A stretch of 64,000 nucleotides of DNA from the IMG/VR virus record IMGVR_UViG_3300022562_001969, positions 1-64,000 of that record; one strand, written 5' to 3'. Shown in pieces: positions 3,399 through 39,617 of this stretch. Both the position numbers and the translations under genes were made by a program. Every line of letters begins with the position of its first letter. The first letter of the stretch is position 1. The DNA is from a virus. The notes below the pieces were generated by a model. That model was not told the origin of the DNA. It did not search any database and saw only the letters and a list, made by a program, of their open reading frames with translations.

Positions 3399-4599
3399 GG
3401 TCATTACCTCCAAAATGCTCAATAACAATCGTTTCAATCGCCTGTTGTAGCAGGCCATAGGTTGTTTGTCGCGTCACCAGTTGGCCCGCGGCTCCGGTGG
3501 TCAGCATCACCGGGCAGGCGGCCGGCGTGGTGGCGTGTTTGATGGTCAGGCTGATCTGTAGGTCGGCCGGCCGGGCCGGGGCTTGTGGTGTAGCCGGGGG
3601 TGGCGGTGGGGGTGGGGCCAATTTTGCCGGTGGAGGGGGCGGCGGGGGTGGGGCCAATTTTGCCGGTGGAGGGGGCGGCGGGGGCAACGGGGACGCCTCG
3701 TCAGGGGGCGCTACCGCTTCCCCTCCGGCGTTCAGCCATTGCGGTTCGTCAGCCGCGGTTGATGTTCGCGCGCGAACATCGGGCGGGGGGGGTGGAGGGG
3801 GAGCCGCTTCCGGTTGCCGCGCCCCGGCCGCCGCCTCGCGTTCAGCCCGCTCGCGCTTGGCCCGCTCATCCGCCTCCCAGCGCCGCAGTTTGGCCGCCTC
3901 TATTTTCCCCTTGATCTTCTCCACCAATTTACGGATTTGATCGCTGGTCAAATCGCCGCCGGCGAGCAACCTTTCCTGAATCGCCGCCGGGGTGGGGCAA
4001 TCCAGGGGCGAATCCGGGCTAAAATCGGGGCTGTCAGACAGGCTGGCTATAGCCAAATCCGCCGCCGAAATCTCCAGCGCCGGTAATAGCTCCATCCCTT
4101 GCCGCTCGCTAATCCGGCCCTGGTCAATGGCCTCAAGGACCCCTGCCGGCAATCTGAGTAAGCGTAATTTGTTGGAGATTGAGCTGCGCCCCATCTGGCG
4201 TAGCCTGGCCAGTTGCTCCTGGGTCAGCTGGCGGCTTTCCATCGTCCGCTGCAACGCCCGCGCCTGCTCGACCGGCGATAAATCGGAGCGGTCCTTATTC
4301 TCATCCCAGGCGATATCATCCATCGCCTGGTCATCCAGCGCGAGCAGGTTGACCGGGAAATACCCGTACTCCCCATCCCCCTCAGCCAGCTGGCGAAAGG
4401 CCCGCAGTCGCCGGTGGCCCTCCGCCAGTTGGATGCGGCCATTAACCCGCCGGCCGGTGGGGACGTGGATCAAGCCCTTTGTGGCCGGCAGGGTGGGCCG
4501 CATGGCCGCAATTTTATCCGCCAATTCGACAATGCCCTCATACCGCTGCCGGGGTTGGTAGGGGTTGTCATCAATTTCATCTAGCCGTATGTAGTCCAT
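3379..4599 (-). CDS. parB: ParB/Spo0J family partition protein with Pro-rich linker
   Basis: NPYQPRQ, AEGHRRLRAF, ENKDRSDLSPVEQA, HTH LTQEQLA...SSISNKLRLL. Confidence 0.9.
   Translation of the reverse strand: MDYIRLDEIDDNPYQPRQRYEGIVELADKIAAMRPTLPATKGLIHVPTGRRVNGRIQLAEGHRRLRAFRQLAEGDGEYGYFPVNLLALDDQAMDDIAWDENKDRSDLSPVEQARALQRTMESRQLTQEQLARLRQMGRSSISNKLRLLRLPAGVLEAIDQGRISERQGMELLPALEISAADLAIASLSDSPDFSPDSPLDCPTPAAIQERLLAGGDLTSDQIRKLVEKIKGKIEAAKLRRWEADERAKRERAEREAAAGARQPEAAPPPPPPPDVRARTSTAADEPQWLNAGGEAVAPPDEASPLPPPPPPPAKLAPPPPPPPPAKLAPPPPPPPATPQAPARPADLQISLTIKHATTPAACPVMLTTGAAGQLVTRQTTYGLLQQAIETIVIEHFGGNDHDSDRV
3763..3778. promoter_or_regulatory. parS-like 16-bp palindrome TGTTCGCGCGCGAACA, copy 1 (inside parB)
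   Basis: Six near-identical copies in the window. Confidence 0.6.
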
Positions 4600-6959: not shown

Positions 6960-7186
6960 TGTTTAATCTCCATTATTAACCGCACCCCTGGCCGCTATAC
7001 CAGGGCGTAGGCGGCCATAGGGTTAAAAAATTGCGTTTAATTCGGTTACGCTGTCTTGCCACGAGTTCGGTAACGGTGGGGCGGTGAGCGCCGCCCGGAT
7101 CTCCGCCCGGCTCATAGAGAGGAAGCGGCCCAGCAAGCCGGCTTCCCGCGAGATGATGTTGCGCCAGCGACGGAGACGACCCAACA

Positions 7187-11570: not shown

Positions 11571-11900
11571 GTGATTACATTCGTCAAACCAATATTGATT
11601 TATTTAATCTATGTGGCTGTGGCCATCGCTCTCTGGCATTGGTTGGTGCAACAGCGATGGAAACCGCACGAAGACGCCAGATGGTTGCCCGCCATTTTGT
11701 TCGTGTTTCTACCGGGCTTCTACTTCGTCTGGCTGGAAATGCCGAGCCACTGGATTATCATCGTCCAATTTTTTGGTTTTGTCGCCGCCTTTTTAACGAA
11801 AAAGGGGCTTGATTTTCAATCTGAGACCAGAATAACATCGTCACTGCGGAGGAAAATCTATGACGAACTCGGAGGATCGTCCCCGCATCCCGGATCATGA
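11571..11900 (+). CDS. small membrane protein
   Basis: Three hydrophobic segments; GAGG RBS. Confidence 0.6.
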   Translation: MITFVKPILIYLIYVAVAIALWHWLVQQRWKPHEDARWLPAILFVFLPGFYFVWLEMPSHWIIIVQFFGFVAAFLTKKGLDFQSETRITSSLRRKIYDELGGSSPHPGS

Positions 11901-12440: not shown

Positions 12441-13466
12441 ATGAGTTACGAATTCCAAAATCGTGTCTTGTCTGTCTCCAAAACAAAACAGTCCCAACGG
12501 CTGCTAATGCTCACCCTGGCCCTGCATGCCGATAAATATGGCGTGTGTTGGCCCTCAGTCAACACCCTGGCCAAAGAACTCAACGCCGCCGTCAGAAATA
12601 CCAACGCCCTCATCGCCAGGCTCAAAGACAGTGGCGAGATAATCATCATCGAGGGGGGAGGGCGCGAAATTAGCAACACCTATATTATCACCCTGGGACA
12701 ATCGGAAACAGATATCGCCCGCATATTAAAAACCCACCCCCGCCTGATCGGGCGTGTAAACCCTGATGATAACATCATAGTATCCAATGACATAAACCCT
12801 GATGATAGTGACATAAACCCTGATGATAGTGACATAAACCCTGATGATAACATCATAGTATCCGATGACATAAACCCTGATGATAGTGGCATAAACCCTG
12901 ATGATAGTGGCATAAACCCTGATGATAGTGGCATAAACCCTGATGATAACATCAGACGAATAGATAGAATATATAGAATCAGTGAATCTAAGAAGAAGAC
13001 ATGTGCGCCTGCGCCTGCGATCACGTTACCCGCTTGCGATCCGGAATTGGGCCGCTGTTATAACATCTATCTCAACAACATGGGAGGCTCGCTGACCGAT
13101 GTCCTGGTGCAGGATATTCGCACCGTTTATTACAGCCTCGCCCCTCCCGGCGGCGAGAAACAGTCAGACTGGTTTGAGTACGCCATCCTGGAGGCGCAAT
13201 CGAACCGGAAAAATAGTTGGTCCTATGTCAAAAAGATCGTCACCGCTATTGCAAATAATGGCAGTTTAGAAAAACATAAGGAGATCCGGCAAAATGGATA
13301 TTCAAACCGCGAATCAGAAACTAATGGCCTTACGCCAGGCGGACGAAATCAAGCGCAATCAACAACGAACGGCCATAGTGGGCCACCCGGCGAATCATAC
13401 GCCGAGTCCTATAGCCGCGTTAACGACGAAAACATTAGCGCCTATATGCGACGTTACTCCAACTGA
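12441..13466 (+). CDS. phage replication initiator (N-terminal HTH, C-terminal DnaD-like)
   Basis: CWPSVNTLAKEL HTH; WFEYAILEA...SWSYVKKIV; internal iterons; next to DnaC-like gene. Confidence 0.8.
   Translation: MSYEFQNRVLSVSKTKQSQRLLMLTLALHADKYGVCWPSVNTLAKELNAAVRNTNALIARLKDSGEIIIIEGGGREISNTYIITLGQSETDIARILKTHPRLIGRVNPDDNIIVSNDINPDDSDINPDDSDINPDDNIIVSDDINPDDSGINPDDSGINPDDSGINPDDNIRRIDRIYRISESKKKTCAPAPAITLPACDPELGRCYNIYLNNMGGSLTDVLVQDIRTVYYSLAPPGGEKQSDWFEYAILEAQSNRKNSWSYVKKIVTAIANNGSLEKHKEIRQNGYSNRESETNGLTPGGRNQAQSTTNGHSGPPGESYAESYSRVNDENISAYMRRYSN
12757..12948. repeat. iteron array, probable replication origin (8 x TAAACCCTGATGATA, 21/36-bp spacing)
   Basis: Direct repeats inside the initiator gene encoding NPDD x8. 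Confidence 0.8.
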
Positions 13467-23856: not shown

Positions 23857-23893
23857 GTTTCAATCTCTCATTCGAGATAATCGGCCTTTGAAC
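23857..23893 (-). CRISPR. isolated perfect copy of the 37-bp array-1 repeat
   Basis: Identical to the repeats at 25478-26098; adjacent partial GTTTCAATC duplication at 23847. Confidence 0.9.
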
Positions 23894-25477: not shown

Positions 25478-26098
25478 GTTTCAATCTCTCATTCGAGATA
25501 ATCGGCCTTTGAACCTGACGCAAAAAGCGGCGCAAAAAATGGCGCAGATTGAGTTTCAATCTCTCATTCGAGATAATCGGCCTTTGAACAGCATCTAACC
25601 ACATCTAGCAATAGGCAAAAAAGAGGTTTCAATCTCTCATTCGAGATAATCGGCCTTTGAACATAAAAATAGTATACCATAAATTTGCCGAGTGTGCAGT
25701 TTCAATCTCTCATTCGAGATAATCGGCCTTTGAACTGATGTTAAGATTGTGGGGACGGTGGCCAGCTTGTTGTTTCAATCTCTCATTCGAGATAATCGGC
25801 CTTTGAACCAGATAATGGCCAAGGTTGCCAAGTATTACGGTGTGTTTCAATCTCTCATTCGAGATAATCGGCCTTTGAACAGGACAAATGAGCGGAATTG
25901 TAGAGGTTGTAAACGGGTTTCAATCTCTCATTCGAGATAATCGGCCTTTGAACAGTGACGATCCACTAGCAGGCGCAACTTTTTAAGGAGTTTCAATCTC
26001 TCATTCGAGATAATCGGCCTTTGAACGCGGGCGCAATTGGATGAGGCCATCAATGAGGCGGGTTTCAATCTCTCATTCGAGATAATCGGCCTTTGAAC
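25478..26098 (-). CRISPR. CRISPR array 1: 9 identical 37-bp repeats, 8 spacers of 35-38 bp (I-D/III-like)
   Basis: Minus-strand repeat GTTCAAAGGCCGATTATCTCGAATGAGAGATTGAAAC ends in the ATTGAAAC handle. Confidence 0.97.
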
Positions 26099-26726: not shown

Positions 26727-26854
26727 TTCGACGATAGACGTTGATAATTGACAATTGACAATTGACAATTGACAATGGTCGTCCATCGTCCATCGTCGTC
26801 TAATTGATTTCATGCGCGTTGACAGGCGGGCATAATATATGTATCATATGTAAT

Positions 26855-27205: not shown

Positions 27206-27234
27206 GTTTTCCCCACAGGCGTGGGGGTGAACCG
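27206..27234 (+). CRISPR. solitary type I-E-like repeat abutting an RBS
   Basis: GTTTTCCCCACAGGCGTGGGGGTGAACCG followed directly by GGAGGAGCT-ATG. Confidence 0.85.
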
Positions 27235-27243
27235 GGAGGAGCT

Positions 27244-27996
27244 ATGGCAAAGCGTAGGGTTAAGTGCCCGCAGTGCGGGTATAGACACATCATCAACATT
27301 CCCAGTCGGAAAGCGATGACGGTGGGCGTGCGAGCCAAACGGATCACGGCCAACCAGTTTGAATACACCCTAAACGGTCCCGCCGAAATCTCGGATGACG
27401 CCAGATTTAGCACGGTGGCTGACGACCTGGTCCTGTCCGGCGCGTTTGGCGGCGCGTTGGGAGCCGTGGCGGGGGGCGCGGTGGCTGTCTTCGCGCCGGA
27501 GTACGCCCTGCACGGGGCCGGCGTGGGCATGAGCGCCGGGGTAGCCCTGGCCTGGGGCTGGTTGTGCGCGGAACATAACCAACGGCTGAAACGGGTGTTG
27601 CCCTGGTTCGTTGAGCAGCGGCAAAACTGGAAACGGCCCGAGCTGGGGGACGATGGCGAGATCAGGCTGACGGTAGATCATCTCCATCGGGACAGCTACA
27701 GCGAGCAAGGCCGCTCCATCGCCCTCCTGGGGACCCTACCGGTCGATGTGGAGCGCTTCCGGGCCTGGGCGCAAGGGGCCATCCGGGGCGATAGCCTGGC
27801 CATCAAACACTGGACGGGAGCCGAACGGCCTTTCAGCCGGGATGAGTATGATCGCCTGCTGCTCAAAATGAGGGCGGCCAATATAGTGACCAATCTGCCG
27901 GGGAAGGGCAATACCCTGACCAATCCCGGCAAGCACGCTCTGAAACGTATCCTGGCCGAGACCCCCTCCCCTACCCCGGCTGAGGAGCGTGCGTGA
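27244..27996 (+). CDS. zinc-ribbon, membrane and winged-helix-like protein
   Basis: CPQCG N-terminus, two Gly/Ala-rich TM segments. Confidence 0.65.
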   Translation: MAKRRVKCPQCGYRHIINIPSRKAMTVGVRAKRITANQFEYTLNGPAEISDDARFSTVADDLVLSGAFGGALGAVAGGAVAVFAPEYALHGAGVGMSAGVALAWGWLCAEHNQRLKRVLPWFVEQRQNWKRPELGDDGEIRLTVDHLHRDSYSEQGRSIALLGTLPVDVERFRAWAQGAIRGDSLAIKHWTGAERPFSRDEYDRLLLKMRAANIVTNLPGKGNTLTNPGKHALKRILAETPSPTPAEERA

Positions 27997-31549: not shown

Positions 31550-33199
31550 TTATATCTCCAACCGCCCTTGTGTTGGCCCTGCTCTTTCTTCTCTTTGGGC
31601 TTGTTTGAAGGTTCCATAGGCGGGCGGCATTTGTACACTTGCCCCCCCTAACAACGCCTCAATGGTAAGTATCTGAATTTTAGGGTATTTTTGGCCCCAG
31701 GCTACAGCCTCATAAAAACCGGCTGACACCGCCTCCTGGATCATCGGCTGCGTTGGTTCTTCCAGGGTGATAAAAACGCCGATAGCCGCCTTTTCCCGTT
31801 CAACCGTCCCAACCAGATCACGAATATCCCGGCTTGACACCTTGCCGCTCTTGACTTGCGCTAAAACCCGCTTAGGTTTGCCTTTTGCCGTATCAATAAA
31901 GGTGATAACCCCATCGATCCCTTTATCCGCTCCTTTTTTGCCCTTTTTACTGCCCTGGGTCGCTTTGCCCGGTCTGGCCCTAACTAACGACAAGGCCCAC
32001 CATTCAAACTGAAAGCGGTCTTGTTCTGCCAGAAAACGAGCAGAGCCTATTGTTTCAGGCTCGCCCTTGACTTCAAACGTTGTGTCCGGAAAGGCTTCTT
32101 GTAGACGATATTTTTGCAAGGCAATAGATAAATGGGTGATGTCAATACCTATCCACTTTCGGCCTAGTTTTTCAGCGGCTACTATCGCAGTACCACAACC
32201 GCAAAATGGATCAAGGACTACATCACCAGGGTTGCTACTGGCTGAAATGATACGTTCTAGTAAAGGTAAAGGTTTTTGTGTAGGATAACCCAGACGTTCA
32301 GCATCAGAACTTTGCAAAGGATTTATATCAGCCCAAATGTTTGTAATAATTGTTCCTTTTTGTTCGTTCAAAAAACGTTTAAGCGCAGGACGTTTACTAA
32401 AATCATAGGAACCATCTTTGTGACGTGGATAATAAATGCGCCCTTCATCGTGTAACTTTTGCATGGTTTCAGGTTTATAACGCCAACCTTTAGCAGGATA
32501 CGGAAAGCCTAGCCATTCGTACATCATATTGGGTCTAGGATTTGGACTTGTCATATTATCCAAACGATATAAACCGCGTCCATTATTATCATCAAATCGG
32601 TAATTTTTTTGGATATATTCCAAATCATATGGTCCATATTGAACAATAAACAGGTTTTTTTTGGAACGTTTATAAAAAAGAATTATGTCAGCAATATCAG
32701 CAAATTTCGTCTTTGCGTCACTATGGGCTGACTGTCGTTTCCAAATAATTTCATTGCCAAAGTTCTCAGCCCCAAAAATAGTATCAAGGATGACCTTCAA
32801 ATAATGGCTTGCTGTTGGGTCACAATGCAGATATAAGCTACCAGTAGGGTTCAATACCCGATGAAGTTCAACCAATCGACTAGCCATCATAACCAAATAA
32901 GCCATCATTTGGTTAGCGCCAATAAAATCACGCATGGCCCCAATCATCTTACTTATATGATCTGGTGATTCTGTTATCAATTCGTGATAGGTTTCCTCAG
33001 CGGCCGCGTTCCAGTGCCAAGTATCATCAAAAGCCGTTATCTGCGCCTGGCTATCTTGCCCACTTTCATCTTTGAATAAGACATTATAGCTGCGCTTTGA
33101 GTTAAAGGGGGGGTCAAGATAGACTAAATCAATACTTTCATCTGCTATGTAATCACGTAGAATTTGAAGGTTATCGCCATAATAAAGGGTATTTTTCAT
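31550..33199 (-). CDS. N6-adenine/N4-cytosine DNA methyltransferase fused to an Mrr-like endonuclease domain
   Basis: DPPF, YPTQKP, DPFCGCGT; C-terminal DKGIDG...QVKSG. Confidence 0.9.
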   Translation of the reverse strand: MKNTLYYGDNLQILRDYIADESIDLVYLDPPFNSKRSYNVLFKDESGQDSQAQITAFDDTWHWNAAAEETYHELITESPDHISKMIGAMRDFIGANQMMAYLVMMASRLVELHRVLNPTGSLYLHCDPTASHYLKVILDTIFGAENFGNEIIWKRQSAHSDAKTKFADIADIILFYKRSKKNLFIVQYGPYDLEYIQKNYRFDDNNGRGLYRLDNMTSPNPRPNMMYEWLGFPYPAKGWRYKPETMQKLHDEGRIYYPRHKDGSYDFSKRPALKRFLNEQKGTIITNIWADINPLQSSDAERLGYPTQKPLPLLERIISASSNPGDVVLDPFCGCGTAIVAAEKLGRKWIGIDITHLSIALQKYRLQEAFPDTTFEVKGEPETIGSARFLAEQDRFQFEWWALSLVRARPGKATQGSKKGKKGADKGIDGVITFIDTAKGKPKRVLAQVKSGKVSSRDIRDLVGTVEREKAAIGVFITLEEPTQPMIQEAVSAGFYEAVAWGQKYPKIQILTIEALLGGASVQMPPAYGTFKQAQREERAGPTQGRLEI

Positions 33200-33575
33200 T
33201 GGTTGACCACCTGACCAGGCCAGGCTATAACAAATGGCAAGTGAACGGTTCACCATCATGCCCGTGGAGAATACCCTGATTTTATCCGAGTTTGGGATGA
33301 CAGGCAAAAAAGACGGTCGTCCATCGTCCATCGCCCATCGTCGGTTACTTGTTTTCAGGCCAAAAGGGTATATAATTGATTTAGCGACATTTTGGCTTGA
33401 TAGTCTGATCAAGATATAATAGTAAAAGAAGCTCCAACCTCTGACAGGCTATCTGTCCAAAGTGTCGCAACTTGAGAGGTCTGGGGCTTCTTTTTGGTGC
33501 TTCAGGATTTTCCGTGGGAACCACTATATCGCCATACAAGAAAAGTAAGCCAACTTTCAAAGATAGGTTCGCAAG

Positions 33576-35627
33576 ATGACTGAAAGCCGCCAACCTGGTA
33601 GGAATTTTAGGGATGAATTACTTAAGATTTTGTCAGGGATGACCGCTTTGGATGACCCTGACAACCGATATCGGCTATTGGACAAGTTGCCACTAGAGGC
33701 AGTAGCAACCATACGACGCAATTCTGCTAAGGGGACCGACCTATACAATATCGTTCAGGCTGCCGAAGGATGGGGACAATTGACCTCTGGAGAGTGGGCC
33801 TTGGTCGTTATCGCCCAAAACGCCCTATCTCTAGTTAAAGGAACCCACCCCGGTCGTCAGCTAGAGGCTCTTTTAGCTGAAAGGGTTATTCATCAGGCCA
33901 AGCCAGGCCGGCAGATCCCCCTTGATCTGCCAGCGCGAGAGGAGAATTTTATAGACCGTAAGGACGAACTGGTATCTCTACTCACCGAATTACAACCAGG
34001 ACGAGTAGTCACTTTGACTGGGCCGGGGGGCATGGGCAAGACTGCCCTGGCCGCGGAAGCCGTTGGCCAACTGGTGGTTGATCATAAGCCCCCTGAGCGT
34101 TTCCCGGATGGCATCTTCTTTCATAGCTTTTACAACCAACCCCAAGCCGGTTTAGCCCTGGAAAGTCTGGCCCTGGCCTTTGGCGAGGAAGCCAGGCCAA
34201 CGGCCCAGGTAGCGGCACAACGGGCGTTGAGCGGCCGGCAGGCCTTATTGGTGTTGGATGGCGCTGAAGATGCGGATGACTTGGCGGCCGTGTTAGCGGT
34301 GCGCGGGGGGTGTGGGGTTTTAATAACCAGCCGTAATCGGGGCGATGCGCCGGCCGTGTTGCAAGACCTGGCGCCCCTCAAACAGCAAGACGCCCTGGAC
34401 TTATTACAACGCTGGGCTGAAGCGCAGCTTGATGACCAGGCGGCGGCCATTGCCATCTGCGAACTGGTGGGGAGGCTGCCGCTGGCGGTGCGTCTGGTAG
34501 GGCGGTATCTGCGTGAGACCGGGGAGACGGCCAGCGAGTATCTAGCCTGGTTACAAGAAACCCCGTTAGAGGCCCTGAACCAGGGGCGGCGACGCGAAGA
34601 AAGTATACCTGTCTTACTTGAGCGCAGTCTAAAGCAGGTCAGTGAGGCGGCGCGGCAAGTGTTGGCGGTGGCCGGCCGGCTGGCGCTGGCCCCGCTGCAA
34701 CAAGAGGTGATGGGGGCCGCTTTGGCAGCCGAAGCGCGTGAGGTGAGACAGTGGTTAGGAGAATTGGTGCGCTATGGCTTGCTGAGCCGGGACAAAGGGC
34801 GTTATGCCATCAGTCACGCCCTCATTCACACCTACGCCAGTGAGCGGCTCAATGTGGCGGAGGAGATGGTCGAGCGGTTGGTGGCTTTCTATGTCGCTTT
34901 GGCTGAACACTTTAGCCAGCAAGGATTGGCAGGCTACCAGGCGCTTGATGGGGAGCGGCCTCACCTGCTGCGCTTGATTGCAGGCTGCGCGAAAGGAGAT
35001 GATTGGCTGGGGGTTCGCAAGCTGGTCTGGGCCATTGATGGTTATTTGTCAATTCAGGGTCACGCCAGCGAACGACAAACTGCCCTAGCGACAGGGCTAA
35101 CAGCCGCCCAACAACTGGGCGACCGCCAAGATGAAGGGGCATTTTTAGGCAGCCTGGGGACCGCCTACTACGACCAGGGGGAGCTGGACAAAGCCATCGC
35201 CCATTCTCAGCAAGCCCTGGTCATCCACCGCGAGATTGGCTACCGCCAGGGGGAGGCTGCTGTTTTAGGCTACCTGGGAACCGCCTACAGCATCCAGGGG
35301 GAGCTGGCCAAAGGCATCGACCATTATCAGCAAGCCCTGGTCATCCACCGCGAGATTGGCTACCGCCAGGGGGAGGCTTATAATTTAGGCATCCTGGGTC
35401 TCGCCTACCGCGCCCAGGGGGAGAGGGCCAAAGCCAGAGAATACTTAGCCCAGGCGCTCACTATTTTTGAGGCGATCAAATCGCCCCAGGCAGACGCAAT
35501 TCGTGAACAGTTGACTATGCTGACTATGTTAGGCCGCCTCCATATACTCTTAGCAATGTGTCAGGCCATCTACGAGAAAGGATTGATGAGGCAGCTTTTG
35601 CCGCTTTTCAAAAGGCTTATTCACTAA
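33576..35627 (+). CDS. NLR-like STAND protein: effector-associated-like N-domain, NB-ARC, TPR repeats
   Basis: GPGGMGKT, LLVLDGAE, LITSR, GRLPLAV; 40-aa TPR repeats. Confidence 0.88.
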   Translation: MTESRQPGRNFRDELLKILSGMTALDDPDNRYRLLDKLPLEAVATIRRNSAKGTDLYNIVQAAEGWGQLTSGEWALVVIAQNALSLVKGTHPGRQLEALLAERVIHQAKPGRQIPLDLPAREENFIDRKDELVSLLTELQPGRVVTLTGPGGMGKTALAAEAVGQLVVDHKPPERFPDGIFFHSFYNQPQAGLALESLALAFGEEARPTAQVAAQRALSGRQALLVLDGAEDADDLAAVLAVRGGCGVLITSRNRGDAPAVLQDLAPLKQQDALDLLQRWAEAQLDDQAAAIAICELVGRLPLAVRLVGRYLRETGETASEYLAWLQETPLEALNQGRRREESIPVLLERSLKQVSEAARQVLAVAGRLALAPLQQEVMGAALAAEAREVRQWLGELVRYGLLSRDKGRYAISHALIHTYASERLNVAEEMVERLVAFYVALAEHFSQQGLAGYQALDGERPHLLRLIAGCAKGDDWLGVRKLVWAIDGYLSIQGHASERQTALATGLTAAQQLGDRQDEGAFLGSLGTAYYDQGELDKAIAHSQQALVIHREIGYRQGEAAVLGYLGTAYSIQGELAKGIDHYQQALVIHREIGYRQGEAYNLGILGLAYRAQGERAKAREYLAQALTIFEAIKSPQADAIREQLTMLTMLGRLHILLAMCQAIYEKGLMRQLLPLFKRLIH

Positions 35628-35929: not shown

Positions 35930-36128
35930 TTGGACGATGGACGACCGGCGGCGACTTAAGACTGCGGCCGCCCATCGTCCATCGTCCATCGTCGCCAAGG
36001 CGAAGCGACCACCGACGACACAACACCGCCGCCCATCGTCCATCGTCCATCGTCGCCAAGGCGAAGCGACCACCGACGACACAACACCGCCGCCCGCCGT
36101 CCATCGTCTATCGTCCATCGTCCGTCGT
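35930..36128. repeat. heptamer REP/STRR-like tract (GACGATG/CATCGTC)
   Basis: Also near 17.1, 26.1, 26.8, 29.8, 31.5, 33.3, 38.0-38.46 and 39.3 kb. Confidence 0.8.
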
Positions 36129-37049
36129 CAGCCCCCGGTACGCCCGGGCCCGGGCCTCATCCCGGCCGCGCAGATAGACCGAAGTCGTGGCGATGTCCGC
36201 ATGGCCCAATTGGTCGCGCACCTTGTCCAGGGAGACGCCGGCTTCGAGGGCCAGCAAAGCCGAGGTGTGGCGCAGGGCGTGAAAGTAAGCCCGGGGCAAG
36301 CCGGCCGCCCTGGCCCGGCGCTTGAACAGTTGGCTCACCCCGGAGGCGGTCAGGCCGGGCCCCGGGCGGCCCCAGCGCCAGGCCGGGAAGACATGAGCGG
36401 GCCGGTGGCCACCCTCGGCCAGATAACGTTGCCAGGCCCACAAATCCCCTTTGACCGCCAAATTAAAATAGACCACCCGCCCCCGGCGCGTCTTGGCCGT
36501 CTCCGCCGCCACCTCGGCGGCCAGCTCGGCCAGGCGCAGTTGCTCCCAGCGCAGGGCGGCCACTTCCCCGGCCCGGCAGCCGGTGACCAGGGCAAAATGG
36601 ACCAGGGCCAGGTCGCGCAGCTCACGCCCCTCGCCGGCGGCGGCCGCCCGGCGCAACTGGGCCAGCAGGCGCTCCACTTCGGCCCGGCTGAGGGCCACCG
36701 GCGGCAGGTGGGGCCGGGGCGGCAAGAGGCGCAATTGGGCAATTTGCCGGGTCGGGTTGCGGTTGGCCTCAATGATCTCTAATTGTTCCAAAAAGTTGAA
36801 AAATGCGCGCAGGTGGGTATAATAGGTGCGCACCGTCACCTCTCCACCGGCGGTGGAGTCTATCCAGCCCATTACCTGACCGGCCGTGACCGGCCAGGCC
36901 GGGCCGATGTAGTCGGCGAAGCGGCTTAAGATATTGGTGTAGTTCTGTAGCGTCTTCGGCCGCCACGAACGTCTCTTGAGAGTGATAAAACCTTTAATGT
37001 GCCCTCCCAGAATGGTATCCGGGAGGGACACAGAAGGCGGCGTAGCCAT
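36108..37049 (-). CDS. tyrosine recombinase/integrase 2 (paralog of 10531-11538)
   Basis: TGCRAGE, AKT, FHALRH, LGHADIATTSVY. Confidence 0.92.
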   Translation of the reverse strand: MATPPSVSLPDTILGGHIKGFITLKRRSWRPKTLQNYTNILSRFADYIGPAWPVTAGQVMGWIDSTAGGEVTVRTYYTHLRAFFNFLEQLEIIEANRNPTRQIAQLRLLPPRPHLPPVALSRAEVERLLAQLRRAAAAGEGRELRDLALVHFALVTGCRAGEVAALRWEQLRLAELAAEVAAETAKTRRGRVVYFNLAVKGDLWAWQRYLAEGGHRPAHVFPAWRWGRPGPGLTASGVSQLFKRRARAAGLPRAYFHALRHTSALLALEAGVSLDKVRDQLGHADIATTSVYLRGRDEARARAYRGLTTDDGR

Positions 37050-37071
37050 ACGATTGGAGGCTCCGGAGAGA

Positions 37072-37152
37072 CTTCGGAGTCAAAACCTTTAGGTTTTTCT
37101 TCGGAGTCGAAACCTTTAGGTTTTTCTTCGGAGTCAAAACCTTTAGGTTTTT
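37072..37152. repeat. 3 x 27-bp tandem repeat upstream of recombinase 2
   Basis: CTTCGGAGTC(A/G)AAACCTTTAGGTTTTT x3. Confidence 0.92.
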
Positions 37153-37222
37153 CAAGCCTGAAGGCTTGGACTCCTCTATTCCGGAGTCGAAACCGGTTCA
37201 CCCCCACGTCTGTGGGGAATAC
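37153..37222 (-). CRISPR. solitary type I-E-like repeat (37194-37222) plus 25-nt spacer-like segment and hairpin
   Basis: GTATTCCCCACAGACGTGGGGGTGAACCG, then GTTTCGACTCCGGAATAGAGGAGTC, then CAAGCC-TTCA-GGCTTG. Confidence 0.8.
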
Positions 37223-37335
37223 GGGCTCCGGTTAATGCCCAAACCTAAAGGCTTGGACTCCTTTGAGCCTTTGAGCCTTTGAGCCTAAAATAAAAACCTG
37301 ACCGGTTTTTGAAACCAGTCAGGTTTGTTACCTCG

Positions 37336-37728
37336 CTACGCCGCCGTGCGTTGCTGGTATTCCACCAGCATCTCGACCGGATCGCGGCCGGCCACGCGGC
37401 CCAGGGCCTCTTCCCAGTCGCCGCTGTGGAGGATGGCGTTGAGGGATTCGACGGCCTGCACCAGGGCCACCTCAAGGTCCAGCAGGGCGACGATGTCCAC
37501 CGCCCCACTCGCCTCTCTGGTAGGGTTGGCGGCGAAGTCAGTCAGGGCCGCAATGGCCTCGACCAGTCTCGCCAGCCCGGGCAACTCAGCGCCGGGGGCT
37601 ACTTCTGCTTCCGGCGCCAGCTCGCCCAACGCCAGGCTGGCCGCCAGCAGACCGGTTGCCGCCAGAAATCCGCGACGGTCTATTTGGTTGTTGGTTTGGG
37701 GGTGTGCTAAAATACGTTCAGTTCTCAT
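37336..37728 (-). CDS. small acidic protein with twin-arginine-like N-terminus (paralog of 8671-9048)
   Basis: DRRGFLAATGLLAA; GAGGAG RBS. Confidence 0.75.
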   Translation of the reverse strand: MRTERILAHPQTNNQIDRRGFLAATGLLAASLALGELAPEAEVAPGAELPGLARLVEAIAALTDFAANPTREASGAVDIVALLDLEVALVQAVESLNAILHSGDWEEALGRVAGRDPVEMLVEYQQRTAA

Positions 37729-37913
37729 GGTAAGCTCCTCTTACTGTGTGAATTAGGGCCGGTTTGATGTTTCAGCATCAGGCCGGCTCGTTCGTTTAAA
37801 GTTGACCACATTATATGCCCAAACTCAGCATTAGTCAAATCCGGCTCAGGATTTATTTTTTTACGACGCTTGCGGCTGGCCGCCGGGCGACGTATACTAA
37901 TAGTAGCTCTCAT
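37725..37913 (-). CDS. small basic peptide (62 aa)
   Basis: Strong RBS CACAGTAAGGAG, but the ORF overlaps the downstream promoter. Confidence 0.35.
   Translation of the reverse strand: MRATISIRRPAASRKRRKKINPEPDLTNAEFGHIMWSTLNERAGLMLKHQTGPNSHSKRSLP
37729..37838 (-). promoter_or_regulatory. repeated promoter/leader cassette, copy 3
   Basis: TTGACT-17-TATAAT, GGTCAA, hairpin nearly identical to copy 1. Confidence 0.75.
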
Positions 37914-37982
37914 GGTATCTCCTTACTGTGAGAGTATGGTTTCGCCTCGTTTTTTAGCCCGCGAGGCGAAGCCTGTTTTTTT

Positions 37983-38277
37983 GGACGATAGACGATGGAC
38001 GATGGACGGCGGGCGGCGGTTTGACGGGCGGCGGTCGTCCATCGTCGGTCGTCGCTTCGCCTTGACGACGATAGACGATGGACGGCGGTTTGACGGTCGT
38101 CGGTCGTCCATCGTCGGTCGTCACTTTGCCTTGGCGACGCTAGACGATAGACGATAGACCGCGGTTTGACGGTCGTCTATCGTCCATCGTCGGTCGTCAC
38201 TTCGCCTTGGCGACGCTAGACGATAGACGATGGATGGCTGTATGGCATCGTCGGTCGTCGGTCGTCGGTCGTCGTTC
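37983..38277. repeat. heptamer REP/STRR-like inverted tract
   Basis: GACGATAGACGATGGACG and its complement repeated. Confidence 0.8.
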
Positions 38278-38407: not shown

Positions 38408-38495
38408 GCGGTTTTAAGCTTCGCGACGATGGACGATAGACGACCGGCGACTAACGACGACCGTCTCTTTTGTTTATTTGTTTATTTGTTTATTT

Positions 38496-38854
38496 ATTTC
38501 AATCCACGCCCCCCGTGAGGGGAGCGACTTCGGTGAAGGAAAAAATTCCTTAACCGATGGGGTTTCAATCCACGCCCCCCGCGAGGGGAGCGACATAAAA
38601 ACAGGCTTCGCTTTGCGGGCTATTTCAATCCACGCCCCCCGCGAGGGGAGCGACTTGGCCGGTCAAGGTGATCCGCCAACCGGTTGCGGTTTCAATCCAC
38701 GCCCCCCGCGAGGGGAGCGACTTGCTGAAACGTTCGTGGTAGACTGTTTCAGTTTGTTTCAATCCACGCCCCCCACAAGGGGAGCGACGCGACCAGCTCA
38801 TCACTATCCAATTCAAAAAGCGTTTCAATCCACGCCCCCCACAAGGGGAGCGAC
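38496..38854 (-). CRISPR. CRISPR array 2: type I-C-like, 6 repeats of 33 bp, spacers of 33, 27, 34, 34, 33 bp
   Basis: Minus-strand repeat GTCGCTCCCCTCGCGGGGGGCGTGGATTGAAAC with variants. Confidence 0.95.
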
Positions 38855-39041: not shown

Positions 39042-39124
39042 CGGTTCACCCCCACGCCTGTGGGGAATACTCGTCCATCGTCCATCGTCGCGAAGCGGTT
39101 CACCCCCCCGCCTGTGGGGAATAC
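39042..39124 (-). CRISPR. type I-E-like mini-array: two 29-bp repeats, one 25-bp spacer
   Basis: Repeats at 39042-39070 and 39096-39124; spacer 39071-39095. Confidence 0.9.
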
Positions 39125-39311
39125 GCTCCAAAACGTTATAAAGTTTTAATGTTACAACCGTTCGCTAGCTTAGAACACGGATATGGGGAGGGTAACGGAT
39201 TTTCGACCTGGCTATAAGTAATCCGTTACCTTCTGCCAATCCGCTGTTCTCAAGCTAACCGTGCAATAGCAGCAACGCCCAAACGGTCGTCCATCGTCCA
39301 TCGTCAGCCGT

Positions 39312-39617
39312 CTATCGTCCACCGTCCATCGTCACCCCCGGGCAGCCTTCGACAAGCTCAGGCTGCTGCGGTCGTCCATCGTCGGTCGTCCATCGTCGGT
39401 CGTCCATCGTCGCCCCCCGGGCGGCCAGCGCCGTATTAAGCGCCTTGAGTTCCGCCTCAAGATCACCTATTTTTTTTTGCAAAGCGGTTTCGTTGGCGGC
39501 CATCTTGGCCAACCGCTTCTCCAGGGTAATATTCAGGAGAAGCGCCTGGCTTAATAGTGAGCCCCAGCGTTGGCCGAGGGTATCGACCAGCTCCAAAATT
39601 TGCTGTTCGGTCATCAT
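39312..39617 (-). CDS. small coiled-coil protein (3' end runs into a REP tract)
   Basis: Coupled to the upstream ORF. Confidence 0.5.
   Translation of the reverse strand: MMTEQQILELVDTLGQRWGSLLSQALLLNITLEKRLAKMAANETALQKKIGDLEAELKALNTALAARGATMDDRRWTTDDGRPQQPELVEGCPGVTMDGGR

Follow-up and report, generated by a model that had tools for sequence, protein, structure and literature searches.

The recombinase gene of a virus from marine sediment carries, in its 5' leader, a perfect copy of a type I-E CRISPR repeat that is found in real arrays of its probable host clade. We read this element, with somewhat less than even confidence, as a recognition hairpin for the host's Cas6e that serves either as a processing site or as a Racr-like decoy. 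The surrounding pattern is real and resembles known CRISPR-derived regulators, while control of the recombinase could not be derived from the sequence alone. All positions refer to the window, i.e. the initial 64,000 nucleotides of a virus record that is 86,114 bp long, has terminal overlap and is rated complete.

Architecture of the repeat and the recombinase leader

The repeat (GTATTCCCCACAGACGTGGGGGTGAACCG, 29 nt) occupies positions 37194-37222 on the minus strand, and copies with at most three mismatches occur four times in the window compared with none expected from shuffles. It is identical (29/29) to the array repeats of locus L017 and to a phage mini-array (L012), and differs by one base from the arrays of Caldilineaceae and Anaerolineae MAGs. 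No repeat-like sequence (seven or fewer mismatches) lies closer than 1.8 kb, and the earlier description of a solitary repeat is therefore true locally; four other I-E copies are present elsewhere in the phage genome. The element shows the features of a solitary repeat unit (SRU): a near-full-length repeat match, a viral intergenic site (here between a terminator and the recombinase start) and no other repeat within 100 bp. No Rfam family was found over the repeat and the recombinase leader. Two more viruses in IMG/VR possess the I-E repeat (L012 at 3422-3511 and L011 at 3486-3560), one of them as a mini-array of repeat, 32-nt spacer and repeat, and the other as a repeat with a degenerate second copy.

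On the minus strand the repeat is followed by GTTTCGACTCCGGAATAGAGGAGTC, then by the hairpin CAAGCC-TTCA-GGCTTG (37153-37168), the 27-bp tandem repeat in three copies and finally the recombinase ATG at 37049, about 144-145 nt from the repeat. The 12-nt guide-like seed GTTTCGACTCCG (37182-37193, minus strand) abuts the repeat and opens the 25-nt stretch (37169-37193, minus strand) that was proposed earlier as the guide. Nucleotides 6-11 of this stretch pair with nucleotides 20-25 (GACUCC/GGAGUC), and the predicted minimum-energy fold indeed includes this self-pairing, as had been claimed. The hairpin has a 6-bp stem and a 4-nt loop. It was suggested to replace the 3' handle, and its geometry does agree with that of the repeat hairpin, but no sequence is shared between the two.

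Several further repeats surround the element. Two copies of a 23-bp direct repeat (AGGAGTCCAAGCCTTYAGGYTTG; 37240-37262 upstream and 37153-37175 downstream, both on the minus strand and identical at 21 of 23 positions) bracket a 64-nt module made up of the I-E repeat and the seed, and none of 2000 shuffles reaches the score of this pair. An 8-bp tandem (CCTTTGAG, 3.4 copies, 37260-37286) is predicted to pair, in the leader RNA, with GGAGCC near the ribosome-binding site. The leader RNA as a whole is predicted to be highly structured (z = -5.7 and -4.1), an outer stem lengthening the repeat hairpin. In the predicted folds guide nucleotides 1-5 pair with the upstream leader and nucleotides 6-11 with GGAGUC.

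The gene itself (36108-37049, minus strand) encodes a Xer-like tyrosine recombinase of 313 aa with the catalytic R, H-x-x-R, H and Y conserved in homologues and without an arm-binding domain. Its start at 37049 is supported by a conserved N-terminus in the only two homologues found (58% and 48% identity), and the best match in IMG/VR, the metagenome contigs and 400 Anaerolineae genomes has at most 39% identity. Xer-type models gave the best scores, all below their cut-offs. An integron integrase with an attC-type cassette system was rejected, as the integron model scored 39.5 bits against a cut-off of 265. Since the recombinase lacks an arm-binding domain, the tandem repeats are unlikely to be integrase arm-type sites, which the earlier note had named among the observations that would refute its idea; binding of DNA-binding proteins other than an arm-binding recombinase at these repeats is possible.

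No sigma-70-like promoter was found between the repeat and the recombinase ATG, relaxed rules included; the phage encodes a sigma factor of its own, and the search covered the sigma-70-like type. Upstream of the repeat, the single promoter-like site is weak (7/12) and lies inside the intrinsic terminator of the upstream moron (37294-37326, minus strand). Hence the repeat would be on the recombinase transcript, and the seed sites would belong to a transcribed leader and not to an operator.

The moron is duplicated in the phage (8632-9190 and 37312-37874, 75% identity), each copy consisting of a tiny ORF and a 125-130-aa protein with a twin-arginine signal and having one of the two Xer-like recombinases no more than 1.5 kb away. 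Homology between the two copies stops at the terminator, and the duplicate is thus uninformative on the ancestral state of the repeat region. IMG/VR returned nothing for the neighbouring 130-aa protein, the 27-bp unit, I-C spacer 5 or the mini-array spacer. In one sediment run a relative of the phage (~92-95% identity) was detected, whose listed contigs span 36034-36723 and 37306-37946 but not the stretch with the repeat and tandem; this absence counts neither way. No RNA run was among those listed as containing the stretch.

Seed matches in the tandem repeat

Tandem Repeats Finder reports the 27-bp repeat at 37072-37153 (3.0 copies, 96% matches), upstream of the recombinase ATG as the earlier note had it, and each unit consists of a small hairpin and GACTCCG. 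The three seed matches described there were recovered. The sole perfect 12-nt match lies at 37102-37113, with AAG at 37114-37116 (together 37102-37116, minus strand), while the matches at 37075-37086 and 37129-37140 (with their AAG 37075-37089 and 37129-37143, minus strand) carry one mismatch each, in both cases at guide position 5. AAG precedes every one of the three sites on the minus strand. As the sites are copies of one tandem unit, they represent one coincidence and not three. The seed of the E. coli I-E system comprises positions 1-5, 7 and 8. The mismatch at position 5 accordingly falls on a seed position, and only the middle site (37102-37113) is a good target.

How surprising is this match? 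A usable PAM is present in 3 of the 27 phases of the unit (AAG twice and AGG once, counted from the sequence), and for a repeat that landed at random the PAM phase alone would thus be about a 1-in-10 event. The 12-nt identity within 100 bp is not due to chance. The real coincidences are two, namely that the identity begins at the repeat edge exactly where the units have AAG, and that it ends sharply. Past nucleotide 12 (nucleotides 13-41 after the repeat) the similarity to the 27-bp unit is not significant (p = 0.35), and the idea that the guide is a fourth, diverged tandem unit was rejected as stated on these grounds. Where the paralogous units have the G of their AAG, the element has the final G of its repeat. 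Host-clade loci contributed 62 terminal or solitary repeat copies for comparison; only two of them have a 10-nt match within 1.5 kb and neither match follows AAG, indicating that the copy at 37194-37222 is unusual and that seed matches are no general trait of lone repeats.

Known regulators of this kind (CreR, CreA and crlRNA) show at least nine PAM-proximal matching bases beside a cognate PAM, two flanking repeat-like elements, and a target inside or next to the promoter of the gene they regulate. Here 12 of 12 bases match at 37102-37113, with AAG taken as the PAM of the host clade; there is one repeat, and the downstream hairpin shares its geometry but not its sequence.

The carrier virus and its other CRISPR material

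The carrier is a siphovirus, with tape-measure, tail and tail-fibre genes at 39.9-49 kb, and its host is probably a member of Anaerolineae. The phage has two Xer-like recombinases, and neither cas6e nor cas1 was found in it. Its CRISPR material is nevertheless varied and comprises five I-E copies, a six-repeat I-C array, and a nine-repeat array with a 37-nt repeat of which one lone copy also exists. This third type is split over 23857-23893 and 25478-26098, with the lone copy 1.58 kb away from the nine arrayed copies and genes in between.

All three solitary I-E copies of the phage are in sense orientation upstream of a gene. Besides the one in the recombinase leader, a second (27206-27234, plus strand) abuts the GGAGGAGCT-ATG of a 250-aa ORF without known family (27206-27246), and a third (33246-33274, minus strand) is decayed, with five mismatches and a broken stem, and lies some 57 nt ahead of the probable start of a methylase-endonuclease gene. 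In the latter, a DNA methylase is joined to an Mrr-like endonuclease domain (31550-33412, minus strand); the gene adjoins that of an EAD8-NACHT/NB-ARC-TPR STAND protein (33576-35627, plus strand), both being defence-type genes beside the recombinase.

The remaining two I-E copies form a mini-array of repeat, 25-nt spacer and repeat (39042-39124, minus strand). Its spacer matches 38419-38443 at 24 of 25 positions, next to AAG (38416-38443, plus strand) and at a distance of 8 bp from the -35 box of a promoter-like site (38407-38378, minus strand) that is good and heads the same leftward region as the recombinase. The spacer is made of heptamers, and as 25 equals 32 minus 7, its length is accounted for by a lost heptamer no less well than by design. 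Heptamer tandems of the GACGATG/GACGATA type and relatives occupy many intergenic regions of the phage (17114, 26777, 29814, 31523, 33313, 35967-36129, 38012-38273 and 39283-39400 for GACGATG-type heptamers, and 81.6-85.6 kb of the genome), and a second heptamer family, CAATTGA/TTGACAA, is seen at 26746, 27040, 49848 and other places. Directly upstream of the mini-array, at 39170-39270 (minus strand), lies an imperfect hairpin of ~96 nt (z = -4.8) without a match to Rfam or tRNA.

In the I-C array (six repeats, 38496-38854, minus strand) two spacers resemble the phage itself. Spacer 4 (27 nt) agrees with 37956-37982 at 24 of 27 positions by direct comparison, where blastn-short aligned 23 of 25. 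Spacer 5 (33 nt; 38529-38561, minus strand) matches 29 of 29 positions of the phage's own coding sequence at 82896-82924, outside the window, but the seed is mismatched over the first four positions and the 5' flank is ACC, not the canonical I-C PAM TTC. Such a pattern is the one expected for a spacer directed against related phages.

Lone repeats in the host clade

The I-E repeat makes up real arrays in MAGs of Chloroflexota and in other sediment MAGs (Anaerolineae, Caldilineaceae, Phototrophicaceae and a few others), and contigs in which it flanks spacers of 30-31 nt come from the same sediment runs as the phage. The I-C repeat of the phage occurs exactly in an Anaerolineae-class genome. The host is thus probably of this clade, for which AAG is assumed as the PAM. 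None of 518 spacers from host-clade arrays matches the phage over 24 nt or more.

One complete Anaerolineae chromosome of this clade (L141) encodes cas6e and a full I-E operon, and holds about 29 lone I-E repeat copies away from the arrays (for instance at 11600-11628 and 13249-13277; further dispersed copies were seen in loci L013-L058). An ORF of at least 200 aa starts no more than 60 nt downstream of the lone copy in 12 of 29 cases in sense orientation as against 1 of 29 in antisense (baseline 17.5%, p = 0.002). The copies upstream of ORFs include those before cas6e and cas2: degenerate copies precede the cas6e ATG by 3 nt and occur in the gap between cas1 and cas2, and the 3' half of these leader copies has changed to GGAGGTGA, a Shine-Dalgarno sequence. 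The dispersed leader copies of the host clade look like Cas6e acting on messenger RNAs, its own included.

No tyrosine recombinases were found beside the dispersed repeats of this chromosome, and a search of 46 repeat-bearing host loci gave no homologue of the phage enzyme; together these results favour a role in RNA, with Cas6e acting on sites in leaders, over recombination scars. The same chromosome has a creR-like degenerate mini-CRISPR between cas3 and cas8e (L141 ~6990-7083, minus strand; repeat-like element, 32 nt, repeat-like element) with TATAAT just upstream, and its surroundings showed no seed match of at least 8 nt.

Possible roles of the element

If the element is a recognition hairpin for the host's Cas6e, it would represent a captured copy of the host I-E repeat, kept in sense orientation in the 5' leader of the recombinase gene. 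Transcripts arriving from upstream, either by read-through of the moron terminator or from the weak promoter inside it, would carry the hairpin; Cas6e may then bind and cut 8 nt before the repeat end, between G and GUGAACCG. The cut would remove the upstream leader that is predicted to pair near the ribosome-binding site and leave an RNA headed by the crRNA 5' handle, and this RNA might soak up Cas5 and Cas7 in the manner of a Racr decoy. Processing or decoy action would in this way tie recombinase expression to the state of the host CRISPR-Cas system. The 12-nt AAG-phased match would most likely be an arrival record, left by a spacer that either originated in the tandem unit or recombined with it, and Cascade may in addition bind weakly through this match at the only perfect site. 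Consistent with a Cas6e hairpin are the identity of the repeat, the cas6e of the host clade, the arrays in the same runs and a phage devoid of cas6e and cas1, as well as the leader position of the other phage copies, the leader bias of the host copies (12/29 against 1/29) and the repeat-like copies before cas6e and between cas1 and cas2. The structured leader RNA points in the same direction, as does the probable presence of the repeat on the recombinase transcript, with no sigma-70-like promoter in between. Some observations fit less well: the copy lies 144 nt from the ATG while the others abut the start or lie within ~60 nt, and a plain Cas6e site needs no PAM-phased 12-nt match to a neighbouring repeat. 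Nor does it account for the AAG-flanked 24/25 match of the mini-array beside the promoter of the same region, and the decay of one of the three phage copies implies that such copies are not always maintained.

The earlier note proposed that the repeat gives rise to a crRNA-like guide for a repressor. In such a scheme a Cas6e-cut RNA (8-nt handle and seed) would load host Cascade, bind the AAG site or sites without Cas3 cleavage and lower transcription of the recombinase. The anatomy does fit the pattern of known regulators: the 12-nt match stands in the exact PAM phase, the identity halts sharply after nucleotide 12 (p = 0.35) as it should for a seed, and seed matches near lone repeats are otherwise rare (2/62, none with a PAM). 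An I-E CreR works with 15 nt and AAG, phage Cracr pseudo-spacers are 24 nt long after losing the 3' repeat, and I-E function needs neither Cas6e nor the 3' hairpin when a unit-length RNA is supplied (PMC4499155). A creR-like element also exists in the cas locus of the host clade. On the other side, a second repeat-like element is absent and the seed is sequestered in the predicted hairpins; moreover, the mismatch at position 5 leaves one good site of three, there is no sigma-70-like promoter at the sites, and the guide runs in the same sense as the mRNA, so that its partner would be the template strand. Within transcribed regions the Cascade of E. coli represses only on the non-template strand, and pairing with the template strand gives little repression (PMC4288209), making it a poor roadblock. 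The claim of a multimerised operator is unsupported on the same five points. Self-matching may also be costly: spacers as short as 14 nt provoke primed adaptation in E. coli and those longer than 20 nt interfere (PMC5159557), so that we infer that a 12-nt match might prime and a 25-nt guide would interfere unless Cas3 is blocked. Taken together, regulation by this guide is a possible but weak reading, and we regard it as unlikely, if slightly less so than the alternatives below.

This guide might act together with the 25-nt guide of the I-E mini-array and the 27-nt I-C spacer as a circuit that reads the host CRISPR-Cas system. A cas-less, probably temperate Anaerolineae phage would then program host Cascade against its own DNA by means of three crRNA-like guides (the solitary repeat with its 12-nt seed, the mini-array with its 25-nt spacer and the short I-C spacer), each directed to a non-coding, PAM-flanked site, all within one leftward region with the recombinase at its end, and integration or excision would be switched by host CRISPR-Cas activity. 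The 24/25 match of the mini-array spacer beside the promoter of this region and the match of I-C spacer 4 to its leader support such a circuit, and the guide proposal with it. However, the mini-array self-match would be dangerous unless Cas3 is blocked, the spacer length of 25 falls one 7-nt heptamer short of 32, more in keeping with slippage than with a 6-nt Cas7 step, and I-C spacer 5, which also matches the phage itself, follows the logic of conflict between related viruses. We consider the circuit in all its parts doubtful.

The element could instead be an evolutionary scar without present function, in which an I-E array of the host or of a phage took up a spacer at the AAG of a tandem unit, or the repeat was copied in by recombination between spacer and protospacer, so that the repeat now sits where the PAM was and the 12 homologous nucleotides mark the junction. 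During I-E spacer acquisition the last G of the repeat coincides with the G of the PAM. The shared G of the repeat and the paralogous AAG is just what this process produces, and the 64-nt module of repeat and seed, bracketed by the 23-bp direct repeat, resembles an insertion or duplication. Other phage spacers are likewise derived from the phage itself or from relatives, one solitary copy is visibly decaying, and prophage excision from CRISPR loci can carry repeats and spacers into phage genomes. Yet a perfect repeat (29/29) implies either recent arrival or selection, escape through one replaced PAM would make little sense while three tandem copies keep theirs, and a scar does not predict that all three solitary copies lie in sense orientation in gene leaders. 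A functionless scar is improbable in our view.

Least probable among the readings considered here is an attP core, i.e. that the recombinase integrates the phage into host I-E repeats, whether arrayed or dispersed, with the flanking repeats binding accessory factors. Such cores are usually recognised by identity to host DNA close to a recombinase gene, and here 29 bp are identical some 145 bp from the gene; direct and inverted repeats are present on both flanks, the recombinase is intact and no tRNA-type att candidate was found in the window. Integration into CRISPR repeats has been raised as an idea for viral solitary repeats (PMC10651486), precedent exists, and aberrant excision could explain the array fragments on the phage. 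Nevertheless, the 46 repeat-bearing host loci contain no homologue of the recombinase, the dispersed repeats of the host clade lie away from tyrosine recombinases, the enzyme has no arm-binding domain for the tandem repeats, and the four other I-E copies of the phage are left unexplained. No joint to host DNA is listed at the repeat (two runs, contigs only), and no integrated copies flanked by repeat halves were found in the host-clade loci and genome searched.

Implications

Phage solitary repeats are known as decoys (Racr), and the silencing of host immunity genes by crRNA-like RNAs of phages is likewise known (Cracr). Should the host's Cascade or Cas6e be turned on the leader of the phage's own recombinase, this would be a third use, in which a virus reads the immune state of its host to set its own life-cycle genes. 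Of all the readings, repression guided by Cascade would matter most. More modestly, lone repeats before genes in the phage, in the host-clade chromosome and before cas6e itself point to Cas6e acting on messenger RNAs. Even if the element is only a scar, it is still a record of recombination between a phage and a CRISPR array.

Comparison with known systems

The streptococcal phage AP1.1 integrates into type II-A CRISPR repeats (bioRxiv 10.1101/2020.10.09.333658). Its attP resembles the present element in being a repeat-identical site by the recombination module of a probably temperate phage, and the array fragments found here are such as aberrant excision could leave. However, AP1.1 shares 8 bp with the repeat and has documented prophages, while 29 bp are shared here and no integrated copy was found. 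Virus-borne mini-CRISPR arrays that take part in conflicts between viruses are also cas-less, have spacers resembling the carrier genome and protect the carrier's own copy by mismatches (PMC6858448), as I-C spacer 5 does. Those arrays are complete units of repeat, spacer and repeat against genes of relatives, in contrast to the single repeat at 37194-37222 with a 12-nt match to adjacent non-coding DNA.

The phage I-E Cracr RNAs mature to an 8-nt handle and a 24-nt pseudo-spacer, with the 3' repeat trimmed (bioRxiv 10.1101/2024.10.29.618823), and like the putative RNA described here they are encoded by a cas-less phage and rely on host Cascade. They copy spacers of host CreR or CreA and silence host cas or toxin promoters, whereas the seed of the present element matches the phage itself. 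Mimicry of a host CreR was rejected: neither the host-clade cas locus examined nor any of the 46 repeat-bearing loci contains the seed, and the pseudo-spacer of the creR-like element does not resemble it. In the I-E CreR of S. enterica, 15 consecutive nucleotides match beside AAG ~140 bp upstream of casA (bioRxiv 10.1101/2023.03.10.532045). Both CreR and the present element combine a repeat-derived 5' handle with a short PAM-proximal match, too short for cleavage, to an AAG site upstream of a gene. CreR is chromosomal, lies in the cas locus, has two degenerate repeats and targets the cas promoter; the element described here has a single perfect repeat on a phage, 12 instead of 15 nt, and its own leader without a recognisable promoter as the target.

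Many solitary repeats of phages function as RNA anti-CRISPRs (PMC10651486). Like these Racr and SRU elements, the present one is a single host repeat located between genes of a virus, and the matching CRISPR subtype occurs in the host clade. Racr, by definition a small RNA that binds Cas6/Cas7 and lowers CRISPR interference, acts by sequestration, needs no spacer match and usually lies just downstream of its own promoter, while the repeat reported here lies in a gene leader after a terminator and is followed by a PAM-phased match to the phage itself.
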